Source of the DNA: Gammaproteobacteria bacterium | Lineage (GTDB): Bacteria > Pseudomonadota > Gammaproteobacteria > JABABF01 | NCBI GenBank assembly: GCA_965205525.1 | Contig: OZ242171.1 | Location: 1,869,098 to 1,933,097 of the forward strand | Reading direction: 5' to 3' | Length of the DNA stretch: 64,000 bases | In this document: in pieces, positions 2,306 to 64,000 of the stretch | Layout of the letters: the number at the start of each line of letters is the position of its first letter | Numbering within the stretch: position 1 is the stretch's first letter | Made by a program: the position numbers and the translations under genes | The notes under the pieces: model-generated | Seen by the model: only the letters and a program-made list of their open reading frames with translations | The model's database searches: none | What the model was told of the DNA's origin: nothing

Positions 2306-3667
2306 TCAGTGCAAAGAATATAGGATTTTTCTAATTTTGGGAAGCCAGTCTCCGTGCTCTGGCTTTAACAGGCAGGAGCGCAGACACTGCACCGTAGCCT
2401 CGTCACATTCCACCGAGGGCTGGTGGTGCGCCATCACGGACGCCGGCAGAGTGATCAGTGCCAAATGCAAATTCCGCTCTGCCGCCTTCTTGTAATACTG
2501 AGCAGAAGCGGCAGAAATTTCGGAGATCTTTTGGCGGTTTGGCACCCAGACCAGTATATCCAGCTCGGGCTCCATCAGCGTCAGGTAGCCCTCATCCTCC
2601 AAGAGGTGCCGGTACAGCCTTAATGCAGCGGCGCGTGATTTGGACAGCTCCTCTGCAAACTTGCCGCCTTTTTCCATAGGCAGCAGCTGCAGAGTCGCCC
2701 ACAGGGCGACAGCGGAGGCACCGGCCCGAGAGCATTCCAAGCTGATTTTTCCCATGTGCATATCGGGATTGGCAGAACTGAAAAAAGTATAGGGAGAGTC
2801 GTATTGAAAAATAGAGCTGACAGACGAATCGCGAAACAGTATGCAGCCACAGCCATAGGGCTGCAGACCGTGCTTATGCGGATCCACAACTATAGAATCG
2901 ACCTTGTGCAAAGCATGGAACGCCTGGCGGGCATTTTCTCCCAAATTGTCTGCCAGCAGAAAATAGCCGCCGTAGGCAGCATCCACATGTACACGAAAAT
3001 GGTATTTATCCCGCAGCTCAAGGATGCGATGCAGCGGGTCTATTGCACCCACGCCGGTAGTGCCCAAGGTTGCAACCACTGTGCCCACCTTGCCCGACTG
3101 CAGGATCTCCTCCAATGCGGCGATCTCCATCTGTGCATTCACATCGGCTGGAACCGACTGGAATGGCAGCTGCAGCACATCAGAGATGCGTGCATGAGTA
3201 AAGTGCGCCTGCGCGGAGGCAACTATTTTCTTGCCAGGATGCACCTTGCCGGCGGCCCACAGGGCTTCCATGTTGGCGATGGTGCCGGAAGTGCTCAAGT
3301 GGCCGATATATCCATCCTGCCAGCCGTACAGCCTGGCAATATCGGCAACCGCTTCTTTTTCCATCATGGAGCTGGCACGACCGCCCTCGTAGGCATGATT
3401 ATTGGGGTTAATCCACATGGCCATGGTATAGGCCAGGCGCGCTAAGGGGTGGGCCGGCTTATTCATATGCCCCGCATACAGAGGGTGCGGATATGGGTAG
3501 TTGTCGCGCATCCTCTCTGCGGCCTGCAGTAACACCCGCCTGATACCCGGCAGATCTGTGTCGGTTTCAAAGGCCGGCAGATCTTCGAAACCAGCTTCAA
3601 GGGTGTCCAAGGCTTCGCTCAGCAAAGAAAGACTTTTTTTCTCCAGCATATGTCTGTGCAAACTCAT
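2306..3667 (-). CDS. PLP-dependent group II amino-acid decarboxylase (DOPA/diaminobutyrate/lysine decarboxylase-like)
   Basis: 453-aa ORF with group II decarboxylase hallmarks: STSGTIANMEAL, DAAYGG, and the PLP-lysine region VVDPHKHGLQPYGCG. Confidence 0.8.
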   Translation of the reverse strand: MSLHRHMLEKKSLSLLSEALDTLEAGFEDLPAFETDTDLPGIRRVLLQAAERMRDNYPYPHPLYAGHMNKPAHPLARLAYTMAMWINPNNHAYEGGRASSMMEKEAVADIARLYGWQDGYIGHLSTSGTIANMEALWAAGKVHPGKKIVASAQAHFTHARISDVLQLPFQSVPADVNAQMEIAALEEILQSGKVGTVVATLGTTGVGAIDPLHRILELRDKYHFRVHVDAAYGGYFLLADNLGENARQAFHALHKVDSIVVDPHKHGLQPYGCGCILFRDSSVSSIFQYDSPYTFFSSANPDMHMGKISLECSRAGASAVALWATLQLLPMEKGGKFAEELSKSRAAALRLYRHLLEDEGYLTLMEPELDILVWVPNRQKISEISAASAQYYKKAAERNLHLALITLPASVMAHHQPSVECDEATVQCLRSCLLKPEHGDWLPKIRKILYSLH

Positions 3668-57121: not shown

Positions 57122-57550
57122 ATGAGCCAAGCCAGAGTGCGCTGTGAAATCGTCAGCGCAGAACAGCAGATTTTCTCCGGCGAGGTGGAGATGCTGCTGG
57201 TCACCGGCGCGCTGGGAGACCTCGGTATCGCACCCGGACATGCACCGCTCCTGACCGAGCTGAAACCCGGCCCGATAGAAATCCGCCAGGGCGAGGGCAA
57301 CACCCAGGTGTTTTATGTCTCCGGGGGCTACTTGGAAGTGCAGCCCAACTGCATCACCGTGCTAGCCGATACCGCGCTTCGGGCTGCGGACATAGATGAG
57401 GCGGCGGCAGAGGAGGCGCGCCAGGCGGCGGAGCGGGAGCTGGGCGACCGCAAGGGCGATATGGATTACACAAAAGCTGCCGCGCAACTGGCGGAGGCGG
57501 CGGCGCAGCTGCGGACTCTGCGACAGCTGAGGAATAAGCGCAGCGGATGA
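57122..57550 (+). CDS. atpC: F0F1 ATP synthase subunit epsilon
   Basis: Beta-sandwich N-terminus plus helical C-terminus typical of epsilon; follows atpD. Confidence 0.9.
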
Positions 57551-58590
57551 CCGCACAGCCTGAGTTCCGGGGCAGCGCCTTGGATTATTTCGGGATCTGG
57601 AGCACCAACCTATTTCTAGTAATTCTGACCTTGGGCTTGTACTCCCCCTGGGCCACCGTTCGCAAGCGCAAGTATCTGTACGGCAGCACCTGCCTGCTGA
57701 ACTCGCCGCTGGACTACCATGCCCGGCCGCTGGCAATATTGAATGGCCGCTTGGTGGCTATCCTGCTGCTAGTGCTGATCAGCTTGCTTTCCTTTTTCCC
57801 GATAGCGGAAATATTGTTTTTACCCCTATTCGTTCTAGCAACGCCTTTCTTGGTAGCGCTTGCCTACAGGTTCAGTCTTCGCAATACTTCTTGGCGACAG
57901 GTGCGATTTGATTTCCGGGGCAGCGGCAAAAGTGCTTTCGCTCCCTATTTTTTCTGGCCTTCCCTAGCCATTATGACGCTCGGGCTGCTGCTCCCCTATA
58001 TGCGCTTTCGCCAGCTGCAATACACCACCGACAACATGGAATTCTGCGGGCAGCGCTTTCGTTTCAGCGGCAGGGCCGCCACTCTCTACAAGTTTTATAT
58101 ATTGGCTCTTATCGCTTTTTTTCTGGTTATCTCTGCGTATTTTTTCTTCTTTGCAAACTTTAGAGGTTTCGGCTTTGGCCCGCAGTCACTCCCTACGATT
58201 GCGCAGTCTATTTTAGGATACTGGGGAGATATCCTTGCATTTTTTGCAATAGTTTTCGTCATTCCCACTGCCGTCTATGTGGCCGAACTGCGATACCGAT
58301 ATAACCACACCAGTTTTGGTCCGGACATCGCCCGCTTCAGCAGCGACATCAGCACCGGCGGAATGCTGTGGCTCTCTATGACCAACCTGCTGGCAATTAT
58401 TCTCACCTTGGGTCTGGCCATCCCGTGGGCCGCTATCCGGGTGCTCCGCTATCGTCTCGCCCACATTCAAGTGCACTGCGAGTCCGAAGAGCGCATTGAC
58501 GCGATGATAGGCGAAGCCAAAGGGGAGGCCAGCGCCATTGGCGAGGAGATAGTGGAGGGCTTGGATGTCGGCACGGGCATAGGGATATGA
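57547..58590 (+). CDS. DUF898 (YjgN-like) family inner-membrane protein
   Basis: F.G...[22 protein letters not shown] pattern repeated twice (internal duplication typical of DUF898). ATGA overlap with the atpC stop. Confidence 0.7.
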
Positions 58591-59675
58591 GCAAGACAGA
58601 GGGCCTTCTTTTTGATGGCCGCTCTGCGAAGGGACAGCCTGTTTCACTGGAATGGGACGGCAGCTGCCTGCACATTAATGGAGAACATGGCAGCAGCGTT
58701 TGCAGCCGTGAGTCCCTGCGCGTCAGTGCCGATATCGGCGGCATTTCCCGCTGGATCTACCTGCCCAGCGGCCTGAGCTGCGAGGTGCGGAATTCGGCCT
58801 TCGCCGATGCCCTCTCTCCGCCGCCCCTGCGCCACCGCATCTTGCGAACATTTGAATCCCGCATCGGTCTCAGTATGGTCGCCGCCGTTTTGGTGCTGGC
58901 TGCGGTGGCTTGGGTGATGGCCCGGGGAGTGCCACTGCTGGCAGAGGCTGTAGCTGAGCGCTTGCCGGAGGAGACCCGTGCCGCTGCCGGCGAAGTTGCC
59001 TTGCTGGCAATGAATCAGCTGACCCGCCCCACCAGCCTCGGCACTGCAGAGCAGGCCCGGCTTGCCGCGCTGTTCAGTCGGGTAAAGGAGATGGCCGACC
59101 GGCCCGATGCCACCCTGTACATGCGAGACGGCTGGAGTATCGGCGCAAATGCGATTGCCATACCAGGCGAGCGCCTGGTCATCACCGACCAGCTGGTGCA
59201 GCTTGCAGAAAACGAGGACGAGCTGCTCGGCGTGATGGCGCATGAATTCGGTCATTTTGAATATCAGCACAGCATAAGAATGCTTTTTCTTTCAACCGGC
59301 ATCACGATAATGATGGCGGTTCTGCTCGGCGATATCAGCGCACTCTTTGACCAGGCAGGAGGCTTGCCCGTCCTGCTGGTATACAACGGCTACTCCCGCG
59401 AATTTGAGCAGGAGGCAGACGCCTATGCAATCGCACTCATGCAGGAGGACGGCATAGAACCATGGCATCTGTCCGCACTCCTCAGCCGACTGACCTCTGC
59501 AGCAGAACCCGGCCTGGACTATTTCTCCAGCCACCCGGCCACCGACAAAAGAATAAGAGCAATAGGATGTCCGCCGCTTTCACCAGCGGCAGACTTGCCA
59601 GAAACCGACCTCCTCCGCACCGCATGCATGCCGCAGGACAAGGCTGAAGACCCTGCCGTATTAATACGAAACTAA
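58587..59675 (+). CDS. M48-family zinc metallopeptidase with N-terminal domain and one TM segment
   Basis: HEFGHFEYQH (HExxH) with a downstream EQEADAYA third ligand region. ATGA overlap with the DUF898 stop. Confidence 0.75.
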   Translation: MSKTEGLLFDGRSAKGQPVSLEWDGSCLHINGEHGSSVCSRESLRVSADIGGISRWIYLPSGLSCEVRNSAFADALSPPPLRHRILRTFESRIGLSMVAAVLVLAAVAWVMARGVPLLAEAVAERLPEETRAAAGEVALLAMNQLTRPTSLGTAEQARLAALFSRVKEMADRPDATLYMRDGWSIGANAIAIPGERLVITDQLVQLAENEDELLGVMAHEFGHFEYQHSIRMLFLSTGITIMMAVLLGDISALFDQAGGLPVLLVYNGYSREFEQEADAYAIALMQEDGIEPWHLSALLSRLTSAAEPGLDYFSSHPATDKRIRAIGCPPLSPAADLPETDLLRTACMPQDKAEDPAVLIRN

Positions 59676-59697
59676 CATATTCTGTTTTAGCCTAGTA

Positions 59698-59725
59698 GAC
59701 GAATTCGCCACCCGTCAAAATCGCC
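59698..59725 (+). repeat. 28-bp direct repeat copy 1 (gacGAATTCGCCACCCGTCAAAATCGCC), 120 bp upstream of the GIY-YIG gene
   Basis: Identical 25-mer recurs at 60823-60847. Confidence 0.7.
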
Positions 59726-59844
59726 CCAGACACGGGTCTCCCCCTCCGTGGAGCAGGTCGCTAAGAACTTATTATAATGAAAATCCATGTCATAATCGAT
59801 TATGGTAATTAGTCAGAGTTGCCTTAATTTAATAGGAAAAAATC

Positions 59845-60675
59845 ATGAGTTCAATCCCAATTACAGATATCCTTGATATTGACAAACCAAGTGCATACAA
59901 ACTTCATGCCGCTCGGTATAATCGAGTCGATGAACCACTTTCTGTGTATGTTAGAGACAAGGATGAGTGGGTTGGCTGGAATAAGTGGAGAGGGGAAAGG
60001 CATGATTTCAATCGGCGATATATATTTTCATTGATTGATTTTTATCATGAAGCAAACACGTGGTTATTTGGTGGAATATTCAAAGTGATGGAAGAAAAGA
60101 AAGGTGAAAATTATAAGATAAAAAAGCTTAGTCAATATTCTAATTATGTTGGTAGATTGAAAGTTAAATGGACTCCCCCCAGTAGAAACCGGGCCTTTAA
60201 ATTGGAGAAGTATTTGGAAGAAATGATAGTCTCTGAGATTCTGAAACTGCGATATTCAGGAGAAAGTTTTCCCGGGTACGAAAACATAAATCATCGCTTC
60301 AGCACCCTAGAACCTATATTCAAAAATGAAGTCGCTGGGTGGAAAGCCGCATTAGAGAACGTTAAAGGGGTTTATGTGGTTATGGATGACTCCAATGGAA
60401 AAAAATATGTTGGATCTGCATATGGAGAAGATGGCGTTTGGTCTCGCTGGGGTTGTTACATCGGAACAGGCGGGCATGCGTGGAATGATGAGCTTGAAAA
60501 ACTAATTAAGAAGAAAGGGCCCGACTACGCACATAATCATTTCACGCTATCATTGCTTGAGCATTACCCAATGAAGGTAGATGACAGCGTGATTATAGGC
60601 AAGGAGGGCAGGGAGAATTACTGGAAAAAAGTATTTCTCTCAAGCTCAAAAAAGTTTGGCTACAACAAAAACTAG
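59845..60675 (+). CDS. GIY-YIG nuclease-domain protein (N-terminal domain unknown), low-GC
   Basis: C-terminal GVYVVMDDSNGKKYVGSAYGEDGVWSRW...H matches the GIY-YIG catalytic motif. Gene GC is far below the genome average. Confidence 0.6.
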   Translation: MSSIPITDILDIDKPSAYKLHAARYNRVDEPLSVYVRDKDEWVGWNKWRGERHDFNRRYIFSLIDFYHEANTWLFGGIFKVMEEKKGENYKIKKLSQYSNYVGRLKVKWTPPSRNRAFKLEKYLEEMIVSEILKLRYSGESFPGYENINHRFSTLEPIFKNEVAGWKAALENVKGVYVVMDDSNGKKYVGSAYGEDGVWSRWGCYIGTGGHAWNDELEKLIKKKGPDYAHNHFTLSLLEHYPMKVDDSVIIGKEGRENYWKKVFLSSSKKFGYNKN

Positions 60676-60819
60676 AGATTTAGGGAATATCTGATTAATA
60701 CGCGAAAACTTTGTGGTCAATGCGAAACTCTCTTTTATTATTCAGATATGCGGCATTGGTGCCGATGAAACTGCGGCACTTTTCACCACTTCAGCAACAA
60801 ACACATGCTATGCTGTAAA

Positions 60820-60847
60820 GATGAATTCGCCACCCGTCAAAATCGCC
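60820..60847 (+). repeat. 28-bp direct repeat copy 2 (gatGAATTCGCCACCCGTCAAAATCGCC), 37 bp upstream of the methyltransferase gene
   Basis: Identical 25-mer to 59701-59725. Confidence 0.7.
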
Positions 60848-60883
60848 GTGGCAAGCTGGGTTGCAGCAACCTAATCGGAGAAC

Positions 60884-61648
60884 ATGCCAATGCCTAGACC
60901 AGTTGCCAAACGGATTGAACCGATCAATGCGTCATCCGATACGCTGACCGCCAGCGTGTTCTCAAGTGTTCGGACTGTCCAACTGCCGGCGATAGAAATA
61001 CCCGCCGGCTTGAAGCTGAACAAGCGTATGAAAATGGACGGCTTGAAATTCCTTTCCAAACTGCCGGACAGCGCCATACCGGTCGCGTTCTTTGACCCGC
61101 AATATCGGGGGATACTCGACAAAATGTCGTATGGTAACGAGGGTATCGGACGCAGCCAGCGCCGCTGCGCTTTGCAGCAAATGACCGAGCCGACTATCGC
61201 CGAGTTTATTCGTGAGATTGATCGGGCACTGATACCAAGCGGGCATCTATTCCTATGGATGGATAAATTCCATCTTTGCAACGGCTTCCGTGGATGGCTG
61301 GACGCAACCGACCTTGATATTGTCGATCTGGTGAATTGGGATAAAGGCAAAATCGGCATGGGATATAGAAGCCGCCGGACTACCGAATACTGCGTCGTGC
61401 TGCAAAAGAAACCCCGCAAGGCCAAAGGCGTATGGAAAGTACACAATATCCCGGACACCTGGCGAGAGAAAACAAACAACGGAAACGGGCACCCGCATAA
61501 AAAACCGTTGGACTTGCAAGGCGAGCTAATCGCCGCCGTGAGCAATGAAGGTGATATTGTGATCGACCCGGCGGCCGGTGGTTTTACAGTGCTAGAAGCG
61601 GCAAAGCTGCAGCGTCGTAACTTTCTAGGCTGCGACCTAAACGGGTAA
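60884..61648 (+). CDS. beta-class N6-adenine/N4-cytosine DNA methyltransferase
   Basis: Motif IV FFDPQY (DPPY variant) precedes motif I IVIDPAAGGFTVLEAAKLQRRNFLGCDL; conserved HPHKKPLDLQGELI. Confidence 0.75.
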   Translation: MPMPRPVAKRIEPINASSDTLTASVFSSVRTVQLPAIEIPAGLKLNKRMKMDGLKFLSKLPDSAIPVAFFDPQYRGILDKMSYGNEGIGRSQRRCALQQMTEPTIAEFIREIDRALIPSGHLFLWMDKFHLCNGFRGWLDATDLDIVDLVNWDKGKIGMGYRSRRTTEYCVVLQKKPRKAKGVWKVHNIPDTWREKTNNGNGHPHKKPLDLQGELIAAVSNEGDIVIDPAAGGFTVLEAAKLQRRNFLGCDLNG

Positions 61649-61719
61649 TAGTGCAGGAACGGAAGCAAGAGCAGCCGGCAAATGTCCAGTTTTTCCTGTT
61701 CCTTTCTTCCCGCACTAGT

Positions 61720-62832
61720 TTAATCAACAACTAAACTATAAGAAGGCAGCAAGTCGCGTAACACGTATGTGCGGTGAATTGCCGCAGCACGATAAAACTG
61801 CCAAACTGGAGATTTTATGGCTTTAAAATAGTTTTCTTGGTTGTTAAACGCTTCCCATTCTTCATTCCAAGATTCGCCATCGTAGTCAGGTATCTGCTCA
61901 CCACTTTCAGTGCCAAATATCTTTCCCGATTCAGCAGCATCTTTCCAGACTTGGATTCGTCCTTCCTTGTTGGCCTGTGTTGCTAAAATGTTTATTACAC
62001 TGTCTCTGATGCTAGAGAATGGACGTCCATCTCCAGAATTATACTGCCCATTGGCTTGGGAAAATTTCCCAAATACTCTGTGTAAAGCTTGGCATCCCTC
62101 AAGAAAAGTTTCAGGATTATTTCTCTCACTCAACCGATTTTCTGCTTCAGCATCATCTTCATCATATTTGAAACTCCATTTCAAAAAGGGGCGGTCCGGG
62201 AAGGTTGCGGCAGCACCATGCCCCAAAGCGCCAGAGGCTATTTCGGCAACTATGCCTCCCAACGTGCTTTTTATATTTTTTATAGAGAAAGCATTTTCCT
62301 TTTTTTTGAAAAACTCTTTTTCTTTAGCACGAACATAGTCCTTAATTTTTTGGTCAAGGCCTTCATCAATATAAATTGAGGAATGCTTAATCTTGTTTCC
62401 ACGGGAGCTAATACCAGAAAAACCGTAGTGCGAAAAGGTATCAGCGTAAACATGTGCGCCAATCCCTATCAACTCACGAGCGAATCCGCGGCCTGCAAAA
62501 CCAAGATGGTGCTCGATCATCTCTCTTGCTGGTTTGCTGTCTTTTCGGCATTTCATCCTATCTCTATAGCTTTCACCAATATTGCCTGGAATAAAATGGA
62601 AAGGCACCCATACCCTACGCTGATCGTGTGGATCCAGATTCGCTAGCGTCATAGGGTGATGAGCAGTAGCTTCACTATCTATTCTTGATCCGTCTTCAAA
62701 TTCAAGAGCTTCCTTTGCCACATTGTCGTCTACAAATTGAGCACAGGTCGCAATAATTATTGCGGCATCCTGACTAAGGCCAGCGGCTCTCGCCATCGAG
62801 TAAGTGCCATGGTAATGCATGTCTAATTGCAT
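61720..62832 (-). CDS. hypothetical His-rich protein (possible metal-dependent hydrolase/nuclease-like), low-GC
   Basis: 370 aa. MQLDMHYHGTYSMARAAG...HHPMTL...HHLGFAGRG...GAHVYADTFSHYGF form clusters of His/Asp suggestive of metal binding. No confident family assignment. Confidence 0.45.
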   Translation of the reverse strand: MQLDMHYHGTYSMARAAGLSQDAAIIIATCAQFVDDNVAKEALEFEDGSRIDSEATAHHPMTLANLDPHDQRRVWVPFHFIPGNIGESYRDRMKCRKDSKPAREMIEHHLGFAGRGFARELIGIGAHVYADTFSHYGFSGISSRGNKIKHSSIYIDEGLDQKIKDYVRAKEKEFFKKKENAFSIKNIKSTLGGIVAEIASGALGHGAAATFPDRPFLKWSFKYDEDDAEAENRLSERNNPETFLEGCQALHRVFGKFSQANGQYNSGDGRPFSSIRDSVINILATQANKEGRIQVWKDAAESGKIFGTESGEQIPDYDGESWNEEWEAFNNQENYFKAIKSPVWQFYRAAAIHRTYVLRDLLPSYSLVVD

Positions 62833-63124
62833 GACATTGCTCCTTTTTGTAAAATTCCAGTTTGCCTTATAAAACTAAGGCCACCATCAAATATATACCA
62901 TGCTCTATTCTTCATGTTCAGTCAACCCCACTAAATTATACGCCGCGCTGAATGCTGGCGCAGGCCGATGGAGATCGCTGGATAAGTGAGTTATAGGTTT
63001 CACGGCAAATAAACTGTATGAAATACGGATACCCGCCCGATATTGTGTATATCCTCTCCACCGATGCATCATCCAACTTCACCTTTTCGGTTAAAATCAC
63101 TCGGCTTTGTCACGCAGATCGGAT

Positions 63125-64000
63125 ATGCAAACAGAAGACGAATGGAGAAAAGCGCTTGACGTGCTGCGCGGGACTTTCGGGTTTTCGGAGTTCCGCCCCC
63201 ACCAGGGAGAGGTCATACGGACGCTGCTGGCCGGCAGGGATGCGATTGCGGTGATGCCCACCGGCGGCGGCAAGTCGCTTTGCTATCAGATTCCGTCGAT
63301 CGTGCGCCGGGGGACCGGGGTGGTGGTTTCGCCGCTGATTGCACTGATGAAAGACCAGGTCGATGCCCTGCGCCAATACGGGGTTCGTGCGGCGTTTTTG
63401 AATTCCAGCCTGTCGTATGGCGAGCGCCTCGATACCGAGCAGACTTTCCTGCGCGGCGGTTTTGATTTGATCTATATGGCGCCGGAGGGCCTGCTCAGCG
63501 AGCCGATGCTGCAGCTGCTGGAAAAGGTCGATATTGCGCTGTTTGCAGTTGACGAGGCGCACTGCGTATCGCGCTGGGGGCACGATTTTCGGCGGGAGTA
63601 TCTGGGGCTTTCGGTGCTGGCGGAGCTGTTTCCCGAGGTGCCGCGGGTGGCGCTCACCGCCACCGCCGACGAGATGACGCAGCGCGAGATCACCGAGCAG
63701 CTGCGGCTGCGCAGCGCGGACAGGCATATCGCCGGCTACGACCGCCCCAACATCCGCTACATGATCAGCGAATCGGCCAACGCCCGGCAGTCGCTGCTCA
63801 ATTTCATCACCGAAAACCATGCCGGCGACAGCGGCATTGTCTATTGCATGTCGCGCAACGGCGTCGAGAAAACCGCCGAGTGGCTGGCCGCAAAAGGATT
63901 TTCGGCAGTTGCCTATCACGCCGGCATGACGCCCTCGGAGCGCGAGCATAATCACAACCGCTTCTTGAACGAGGCCGGCATCATCGTCGTGGCGACGATC
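63125..64000 (+). CDS. recQ: ATP-dependent DNA helicase RecQ (N-terminal 292 aa; continues beyond window)
   Basis: MQTEDEWRKALDVLRGTFGFSEFRPHQGEVIRTLLAGRDAIAVMPTGGGKSLCYQIP...DEAHCVSRWGHDFR...LTATAD. Not in the ORF track because it runs off the edge. Confidence 0.9.
   Translation, partial: MQTEDEWRKALDVLRGTFGFSEFRPHQGEVIRTLLAGRDAIAVMPTGGGKSLCYQIPSIVRRGTGVVVSPLIALMKDQVDALRQYGVRAAFLNSSLSYGERLDTEQTFLRGGFDLIYMAPEGLLSEPMLQLLEKVDIALFAVDEAHCVSRWGHDFRREYLGLSVLAELFPEVPRVALTATADEMTQREITEQLRLRSADRHIAGYDRPNIRYMISESANARQSLLNFITENHAGDSGIVYCMSRNGVEKTAEWLAAKGFSAVAYHAGMTPSEREHNHNRFLNEAGIIVVATI

Follow-up and report, generated by a model that had tools for sequence, protein, structure and literature searches.

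The single-gene anti-phage system Uzume, placed by a survey paper among the single-gene systems with a GIY-YIG domain, has the UzuA protein as its nuclease. A gene that encodes such a protein is found in a 64,000-bp stretch of a gammaproteobacterial genome (GenBank assembly GCA_965205525.1, contig OZ242171.1, positions 1,869,098 to 1,933,097), referred to below as the window, where it is followed by a type II DNA methylase gene and where each of the two genes is preceded by a copy of the same 25-bp sequence, GAATTCGCCACCCGTCAAAATCGCC. The origin of this repeat pair is considered here in the light of several described systems that the locus resembles in one respect or another. Free-standing GIY-YIG homing endonucleases of phages are one such system, and homing leaves no flanking duplication. 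Homology-facilitated illegitimate recombination (HFIR), or short-patch double illegitimate recombination, has reportedly been characterised experimentally in Acinetobacter, where short substitutions with templated patches are said to result. In restriction–modification (R-M) systems, a nuclease and a methylase may be co-regulated through C-boxes. Integron cassettes, in turn, are known to carry phage-defence genes (bioRxiv 10.1101/2024.07.02.601719; PMC12614218).

Comparison with a second genome provides the evidence on which the interpretation chiefly depends. Among 5.8 billion proteins, only three are close relatives of the M48 peptidase encoded on the left of uzuA; one of them, 98% identical, is encoded on a 31.6-kb contig (L003). 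Since L003 and the window are 98.9% identical over 3505 bp on the atp–M48 side, without a single gap (identity on the right side being 96.2%), the contig derives from the same species as the window genome. The gene order in L003 is atpC-DUF898-M48-methylase-DUF6765-recQ, with no uzuA. Sequence common to the two genomes stops at window position 59694 and restarts at 60767, the 1072 bp between these positions being specific to the window strain (Table 1). L003 has one copy of the 25-mer (3582–3606), situated 36 nt upstream of the same methylase ATG. An orthologous locus of this kind, devoid of the nuclease gene and with a single repeat copy, had been proposed as a check in the first-pass annotation, a brief reading of the window in which the repeats were first remarked upon. 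Because the right copy of the repeat is located in leader sequence that L003 also has, it is part of the resident methylase leader, with the left copy having arisen or arrived together with the uzuA segment.

The L003 allele is not, however, a simple junction of left flank, one repeat and right flank, since 20 unrelated nucleotides occupy the position of the strain-specific segment and a further 52 nt of common leader separate the right junction from the repeat. At 44% G+C, this common leader is closer in composition to the cassette than to the methylase gene. Both indel junctions have short shared nucleotides (AG at one, GA/GAT at the other), with a mismatch right beside each. The view offered in the first-pass annotation that the repeats were left by a mobile GIY-YIG cassette thus holds in so far as they are associated with an insertion, the relative without uzuA having a single copy, whereas a textbook target-site duplication or att core is not demonstrated, because L003 keeps about 52 nt and has 20 unrelated bases. 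For the same reason, the description of the repeats as bracketing the cassette is only approximate; the left copy is at the junction, but the right copy is some 52 nt outside the inserted DNA. Elsewhere in the window and across the fetched loci, no match was found to the non-coding parts of the cassette or to the 20-nt filler of L003. A possible likeness between the filler (GGGGGGTAGCTCAAG) and a tRNA 5' end was also considered, with a negative result from ARAGORN.

The repeat itself is short and sharply bounded. As the first-pass annotation had reported, the 25-mer is present twice in the window, at 59701–59725 and 60823–60847, on the + strand in both cases, and no further match was found in the 64 kb on either strand with up to three mismatches allowed. 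No match occurred in 100 dinucleotide shuffles, and the chance expectation for an identical 25-mer pair, assuming uniform base composition, is approximately 2e-6. With one mismatch (AGAC versus AGAT) the repeat grows to 29 bp (59697–59725 and 60819–60847, a period of 1122 bp), beyond which local alignments of the flanks on either side were no better than those of shuffled controls, hence the sharp boundaries. A third, degenerate copy at the recQ border of the locus was sought by eye, and local alignment there was likewise at shuffle level. Exact searches of the public collections for the 25-mer gave no match in IMG/VR, in 185,579 representative genomes or in 241 million metagenome records; with up to five mismatches it was absent from all 165 fetched loci besides L003, the nearest sequence having six. 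A common dispersed repeat of the repetitive extragenic palindromic (REP) type, the finding that according to the first-pass annotation would dissociate the repeats from these genes, was not encountered in the searched sequence, and with two copies in the 64-kb window and one in 13.5 kb of L003 a high-copy REP-like element is excluded. No Rfam family, tRNA or tmRNA was detected at the locus.

With respect to the genes, the left 25-mer ends 119 nt before the uzuA ATG (59845) and the right 25-mer ends 36 nt before the first methylase ATG (60884), in keeping with the distances given originally, or 42 nt before an alternative start at 60890 that yields a 252-aa product, as annotated in L003. Among the features of the 25-mer are a GAATTC palindrome and a pair of TCGCC half-sites 16 nt apart. 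The 28–29-mer can also be read in an 11-6-11 format (GACGAATTCGC / CACCCG / TCAAAATCGCC), the outer 11-mers of which form an imperfect inverted repeat (7 of 11 positions matching; p ~0.008 for a single spacing, ~0.08 over several spacings), such that dyad symmetry is weak. A separate observation concerns a 17-codon upstream open reading frame (MNSPPVKIAVASWVAAT, 60821–60874) that overlaps the right copy and stops 9 nt before the methylase ATG. Its ATG is formed by the T of AGAT together with the 25-mer, the corresponding triplet in the left copy being ACG; it is kept in L003 with one amino-acid change, and is not preceded by a Shine-Dalgarno sequence.

Taken with the L003 comparison, these properties indicate that the repeats are probably associated with an insertion as opposed to being regulatory in origin. 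The left 29-mer begins only 2 nt from the left indel junction, a coincidence not to be expected unless duplication and insertion came about together. It is, on balance, likely that the event was a recent insertion, between the M48 gene and a resident methylase gene, of an A+T-rich fragment of approximately 1.07 kb comprising only uzuA and its own non-coding flanks; the perfect identity of the repeat copies also argues that the event was recent. The site is a variable islet next to recQ. The inserted segment is foreign in composition, and G+C content as a whole dips between M48 and recQ (M48, 59.8%; uzuA segment, 39.8%; methylase, 53%; DUF6765, 43%; recQ, 62%; window, 57%), identifying 59.7–63.1 kb as a small foreign islet between core genes.

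The indel, the copy numbers, the junction coordinates and the family assignments are shown directly, and the order of events and the templated-copy step are inferred. As to how the fragment was joined, either a microhomology-mediated templated copy or a true att or target duplication would serve. A tentative preference, which falls short of regarding it as probable, is given to a scheme in which the L003-like state is ancestral and the foreign fragment was joined by microhomology-mediated illegitimate recombination. In this scheme, the chromosomal end on the left (...GTAG in both genomes) would prime on the AG just before the resident 25-mer (...AAAG|AT-25-mer), and 25–27 nt would be copied before a switch to the foreign DNA, thereby generating the left repeat copy. 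The right end would then join at the GA/GAT microhomology, with the loss of about 20 nt of original spacer. Only a single event is needed, and the scheme would explain why the left copy abuts its junction while the right copy does not. The outcome would be the strain-specific gain of one defence gene, with any effect of the extra repeat copy on uzuA expression being incidental. The resemblance to HFIR and short-patch events lies in junction microhomology of 2–3 nt, the loss of a few target bases and a short ectopic copy at one junction; the difference lies in the scale, a 1-kb foreign gene and a 25–29-nt templated copy being envisaged here.

Several points weigh against this interpretation. 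L003 could represent a secondary deletion of a repeat-bounded cassette, and with only two genomes of the lineage in the collections (as judged from cluster look-ups) the polarity of the indel is not settled by phylogeny. A terminator-like hairpin at 60758–60780 spans the right junction, half of it being insert-specific and half being made of bases common to L003, in which it has no counterpart; its position would fit better if the shared segment of about 52 nt had originally belonged to the cassette. In addition, the window is without six nucleotides (aggggg) that are next to the left junction in L003, so that an extra small event is required. Templated junction copies of 25–29 nt are, to our knowledge, rarely documented in bacteria. 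Finally, the left copy may conceivably exert a regulatory side-effect in its present position.

The assignment of the nuclease is straightforward. The 276-aa protein matches the PADLOC UzuA model (PDLC03973) with an E-value of 5e-45, residues 6–276 aligning with positions 5–278 of the 278 in the model, and the residues of the GIY...YVG...R...E signature (G175, Y177, Y188, G190, R201 and E257) do not vary across the 28 homologues that were aligned. Matches to Pfam GIY-YIG (E 0.2, below threshold) and TIGR01453 (E 3e-4, below cut-off) are weak, and NCBI names UzuA homologues GIY-YIG nuclease. At the sequence level, therefore, the protein is in every respect a full-length UzuA of the Uzume system; it agrees with the family in its end-to-end model match, its catalytic columns and the absence of a conserved partner gene, and the protein itself shows no differences from it. 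What differs is the setting, since the gene adjoins an unrelated methylase gene, an adjacency seen in no other examined locus. Phage free-standing GIY-YIG homing endonucleases are similar in being encoded by lone intergenic genes that are present or absent between relatives, and the weak TIGR01453 match points in the same direction; the nuclease domain of the present protein is, however, C-terminal, so that the domain order is reversed, the family is a documented defence gene, and no sign of a cleavage site was obtained.

The wider distribution of UzuA is also informative. Homologues number 1037, across many phyla. Proteins with 32–42% identity are encoded on 410 plasmids in PLSDB, for the most part those of Klebsiella, Enterobacter and lactic acid bacteria, as well as in three phage records. 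A blastn search of plasmids with the cassette gave no match. Direct repeats were sought within 700–800 bp on each side of uzuA in 74 other loci, eight of which have long flanking repeats (20 to >400 bp), the repeats at all others being of 12 bp or less. Comparable repeats were present in none of 66 methylase loci (Fisher p 0.007). In most of the eight the UzuA genes are located in attC arrays (L060, 1–12747; L009, 4898–11792; L053, 4399–7137; L037, 1338–6011, of which L034 is the same sequence), that of Luteimonas terricola (L060) having at least 18 CCTAAC...GTTAGGC sites. In Neptuniibacter caesariensis (L010, 3067–7283), five repeats of the 3' end of a tRNA-Ser gene, with its terminator, are arranged downstream of that gene, and these repeats bound an RtcB-PrfH module and a module with UzuA only, with no integrase in the 12.8 kb fetched. 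L057 has one unexplained 103-bp repeat. In L012 (1223–2310), uzuA is positioned between two tandem aldehyde-dehydrogenase genes, after a 116-bp sequence that duplicates the leader and initial eight codons of the downstream gene (90% identity, 97% over the inner 66 bp) and is fused in frame to UzuA; the insertion here is unconnected with an integron and has a long duplication of its target. Given the attC and tRNA repeat contexts, the 410 plasmids and the three phage records, UzuA is a habitual single-gene passenger of cassette-type mobility. Since its homologues are cassettes within attC arrays, Uzume also belongs to the defence genes that chromosomal integrons keep in store, in agreement with the published work on integron cassettes cited above.

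The present locus shares with such integron cassettes a single gene in about 1 kb and a family whose members are bona fide attC cassettes elsewhere, but the window has no attC hairpin of the RYYYAAC...GTTRRRY form and no array, and no integron integrase was identified. The likeness to integrase-less islets is closer, in that a single-gene module of about 1.1 kb is situated between direct repeats of local sequence with no recombinase inside, as in N. caesariensis; here, however, the repeat is 25–29 bp as opposed to approximately 75–100 bp, is not derived from a tRNA and is present in two copies, and the empty allele is imprecise.

The most durable of the alternative explanations, although rather unlikely, is that the 28–29-mer is an att-like core at which a recombinase acting in trans inserts and excises an integrase-less UzuA cassette (59726–60822 plus one repeat), with L003 representing a later imprecise deletion that kept the last 52 nt of the cassette. 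Cores of att sites are typically direct repeats of 25–29 bp, a length that the repeat fits, and the 7-of-11 pairing of the 11-6-11 arms is of the kind that such a site might display. The hairpin that spans the L003/window boundary and the A+T-rich composition of the common 52 nt are both as they would be if this segment were the 3' end of the cassette, and the modules bounded by attC or tRNA-Ser att repeats in other genomes establish that UzuA can be found alone between recombination-site repeats with no integrase inside. Against this, the L003 allele is not the precise site (M48-...agcctagtagac-25-mer-gtggca...-methylase) to be expected from repeat-by-repeat excision; a second event is needed, the left end of which would have to fall by chance 2 nt from the left repeat. 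The other border of the islet is without a third copy of the repeat, the 25-mer is absent from the viral, representative-genome and metagenome collections, and no tRNA was found from which a site could derive. No recombinase is encoded by the cassette, and none turned up elsewhere in the window, which was not systematically annotated.

An attC identity for the repeats was considered specifically and rejected: folding z-scores around each copy ranged from 0.13 to -1.0 on either strand, and a crude motif-plus-pairing scan returned no site in the 64 kb or in L003 while recovering sites in L060, L009 and L053. A dif/Xer-like reading of the 28-bp, 11-6-11 format was similarly set aside, the arms being unlike the proteobacterial dif consensus in a comparison made by eye only. 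A bolder proposal still, which is distinctly improbable, is that single-gene defence cassettes mobilised in trans use the 28–29-mer as a functional 11-6-11 recombination site, or that UzuA spreads by a leader-duplicating mechanism of which L012 would be another example. If true, integrase-less defence cassettes would be swapped at a chromosomal hotspot in a manner analogous to Xer-dependent dif modules.

Somewhat less tenable than the att-like core, and improbable in its own right, is the proposal that the 25-mer is an operator, as suggested in the first-pass annotation for a toxin/antitoxin-like pair, or else a methylation-sensitive site by virtue of GAATTC, that co-regulates nuclease and methylase in the style of a C-box. 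Each start codon is indeed preceded, on the coding strand, by a perfect 25-mer, the left copy is approximately 47–72 nt upstream of a TATAAT hexamer (59773–59778), which is a plausible position for an activator, and the GAATTC palindrome and paired TCGCC half-sites are features that a binding site might have. However, neither this methylase nor DUF6765 was found within 6 kb of uzuA in any of 80 fetched loci from very diverse phyla, and the 25-mer motif was absent from the 74 other UzuA loci. Conversely, none of 82 other methylase-homologue loci (L001 and L002, with ~76–77% identity, and 80 more distant metagenome loci) contained UzuA, DUF6765 or a motif resembling the 25-mer. With the pairing absent from both sets of loci, the nuclease and methylase genes are unrelated neighbours as opposed to a conserved pair, and Uzume is a single-gene system in published surveys.

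Further evidence from the locus itself is also unfavourable to the shared operator. The L003 methylase gene keeps its 25-mer with no nuclease to co-regulate, the islet has no free open reading frame of controller-protein size (70–100 aa), and the copies are at unequal distances from their ATGs (119 versus 36 nt). Promoter-like sites overlapping either copy are absent from both the window and L003, and the dyad symmetry is weak. The placement of the left copy exactly at the indel junction is explained by an insertion and would not be predicted by a regulatory origin. The likeness to C-box-controlled R-M systems is thus superficial, amounting to a short identical sequence before a nuclease gene and a methylase gene, whereas a controller gene, a strong dyad, a conserved gene pair and conservation of the element are all lacking. 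None of the comparative predictions of a shared operator was borne out, and the original suggestion finds no support.

It is very doubtful that homologous recombination with an unsampled relative brought in the whole M48-uzuA-methylase block, in which case the repeat would be older and would have formed elsewhere, perhaps through tandem duplication of the methylase leader and subsequent gene replacement. Both flanks are nearly identical to those of L003, as would permit allelic replacement, a mosaic patch in DUF6765 (described below) suggests recombination in the islet, and the UzuA gene in L012 is preceded by a 116-bp duplicate of the leader and first codons of the downstream gene. Importation would, however, only mean that the repeat had formed in some other genome; a donor of this kind is absent from the collections searched, and the perfect repeat copies argue for a recent event. 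That the repeat is a low-copy dispersed element or an assembly artefact unrelated to either gene is scarcely credible, for even though the search covered 64 kb, with roughly 1.9 Mb of the source genome outside, there are two copies in that window, one in L003 and none in 165 loci and three public collections, copy number follows the presence or absence of uzuA, and the contig naming suggests a long-read assembly, the reads of which would presumably span a 1.1-kb insert.

Returning to the insertion of a uzuA fragment as the preferred explanation, the locus records, to the base pair, that Uzume has been gained or lost within a species, at a small variable islet flanked by core genes, and the form of the junctions suggests illegitimate, microhomology-mediated capture as opposed to the action of a dedicated mobile element. 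The locus works like a small integrase-less islet with flanking direct repeats, departs from strict target-site duplications, integron cassettes and C-box R-M systems alike, and remains within known kinds. It constitutes one more example of defence-gene turnover, and not a new regulatory or mobility principle, its interest being that a defence gene acquired by one strain can be followed at an informative junction. It also serves as a caution that an identical sequence before a nuclease gene and a methylase gene is not necessarily an R-M control element.

Table 1. Coordinates of features at the uzuA locus, given as positions in the 64-kb window
Feature	Position	Strand	Remarks
DUF898 membrane protein gene	57547–58590	+	
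M48 peptidase gene	58587–59675	+	Left core-genome flank of islet
Strain-specific segment	59695–60766		1072 bp, 39.8% G+C; replaced in L003 by 20 unrelated bp (aggggggtagctcaagcacg)
Left repeat copy	59697–59725 (exact 25-mer 59701–59725)	+	AGAC+GAATTCGCCACCCGTCAAAATCGCC; begins 2 nt inside left junction of strain-specific segment
uzuA	59845–60675	+	276 aa, C-terminal GIY-YIG nuclease domain; PADLOC UzuA
Sigma-70-like promoter match, TGGTCA-16-TATTAT	60714–60741	+	Consensus match only; inside insert, downstream of uzuA, upstream of methylase
Hairpin, GGUGCCG-9 nt-CGGCACU + UUU	60758–60780	+	7-bp, terminator-like; spans right indel junction
Leader segment common to L003	60767–60818 (L003 3526–3577)	+	52 nt between right junction and right repeat
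Right repeat copy	60819–60847 (exact 25-mer 60823–60847)	+	AGAT+25-mer; resident methylase leader; sole copy in UzuA-less relative (L003 3578–3606)
Type II N6/N4 DNA methyltransferase gene	60884–61648	+	PF01555; PADLOC MTase_II
DUF6765 gene	61720–62832	-	Same low-G+C islet; present in L003
recQ-type helicase gene, 5' part	63125–64000	+	Right core-genome flank; runs past window end

The gene order on the + strand is atpD, atpC, DUF898, M48 peptidase, uzuA and methylase, followed by DUF6765 on the - strand and the recQ-type helicase gene on the + strand. Within the islet, the only open reading frames that match families are uzuA, the methylase gene and DUF6765. The sigma-70-like promoter match listed in Table 1 is the sole + strand match in 59500–61000. 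Two long antisense open reading frames on the - strand, one of 265 aa over the methylase gene (60871–61668) and one of 281 aa over recQ (63110–63955), probably arise spuriously from the high G+C content; for the 281-aa frame, Pfam and NCBIfam gave no match.

Variation between the two genomes extends to the DUF6765 gene, the product of which is uncharacterised. A patch of DUF6765 (62167–62566, - strand) is only 83–91% identical to L003, whereas its flanks are 97–100% identical, which suggests either diversifying selection or mosaic recombination. Downstream of recQ, in a region past the window end, L003 (7823–13486) carries a further defence-like cluster with DUF6884/GIY_YIG_3, M78 peptidase, ThsB-type TIR, Nmad2, MazG_C and UDG genes, on account of which the recQ neighbourhood is regarded as a defence hotspot in this species.

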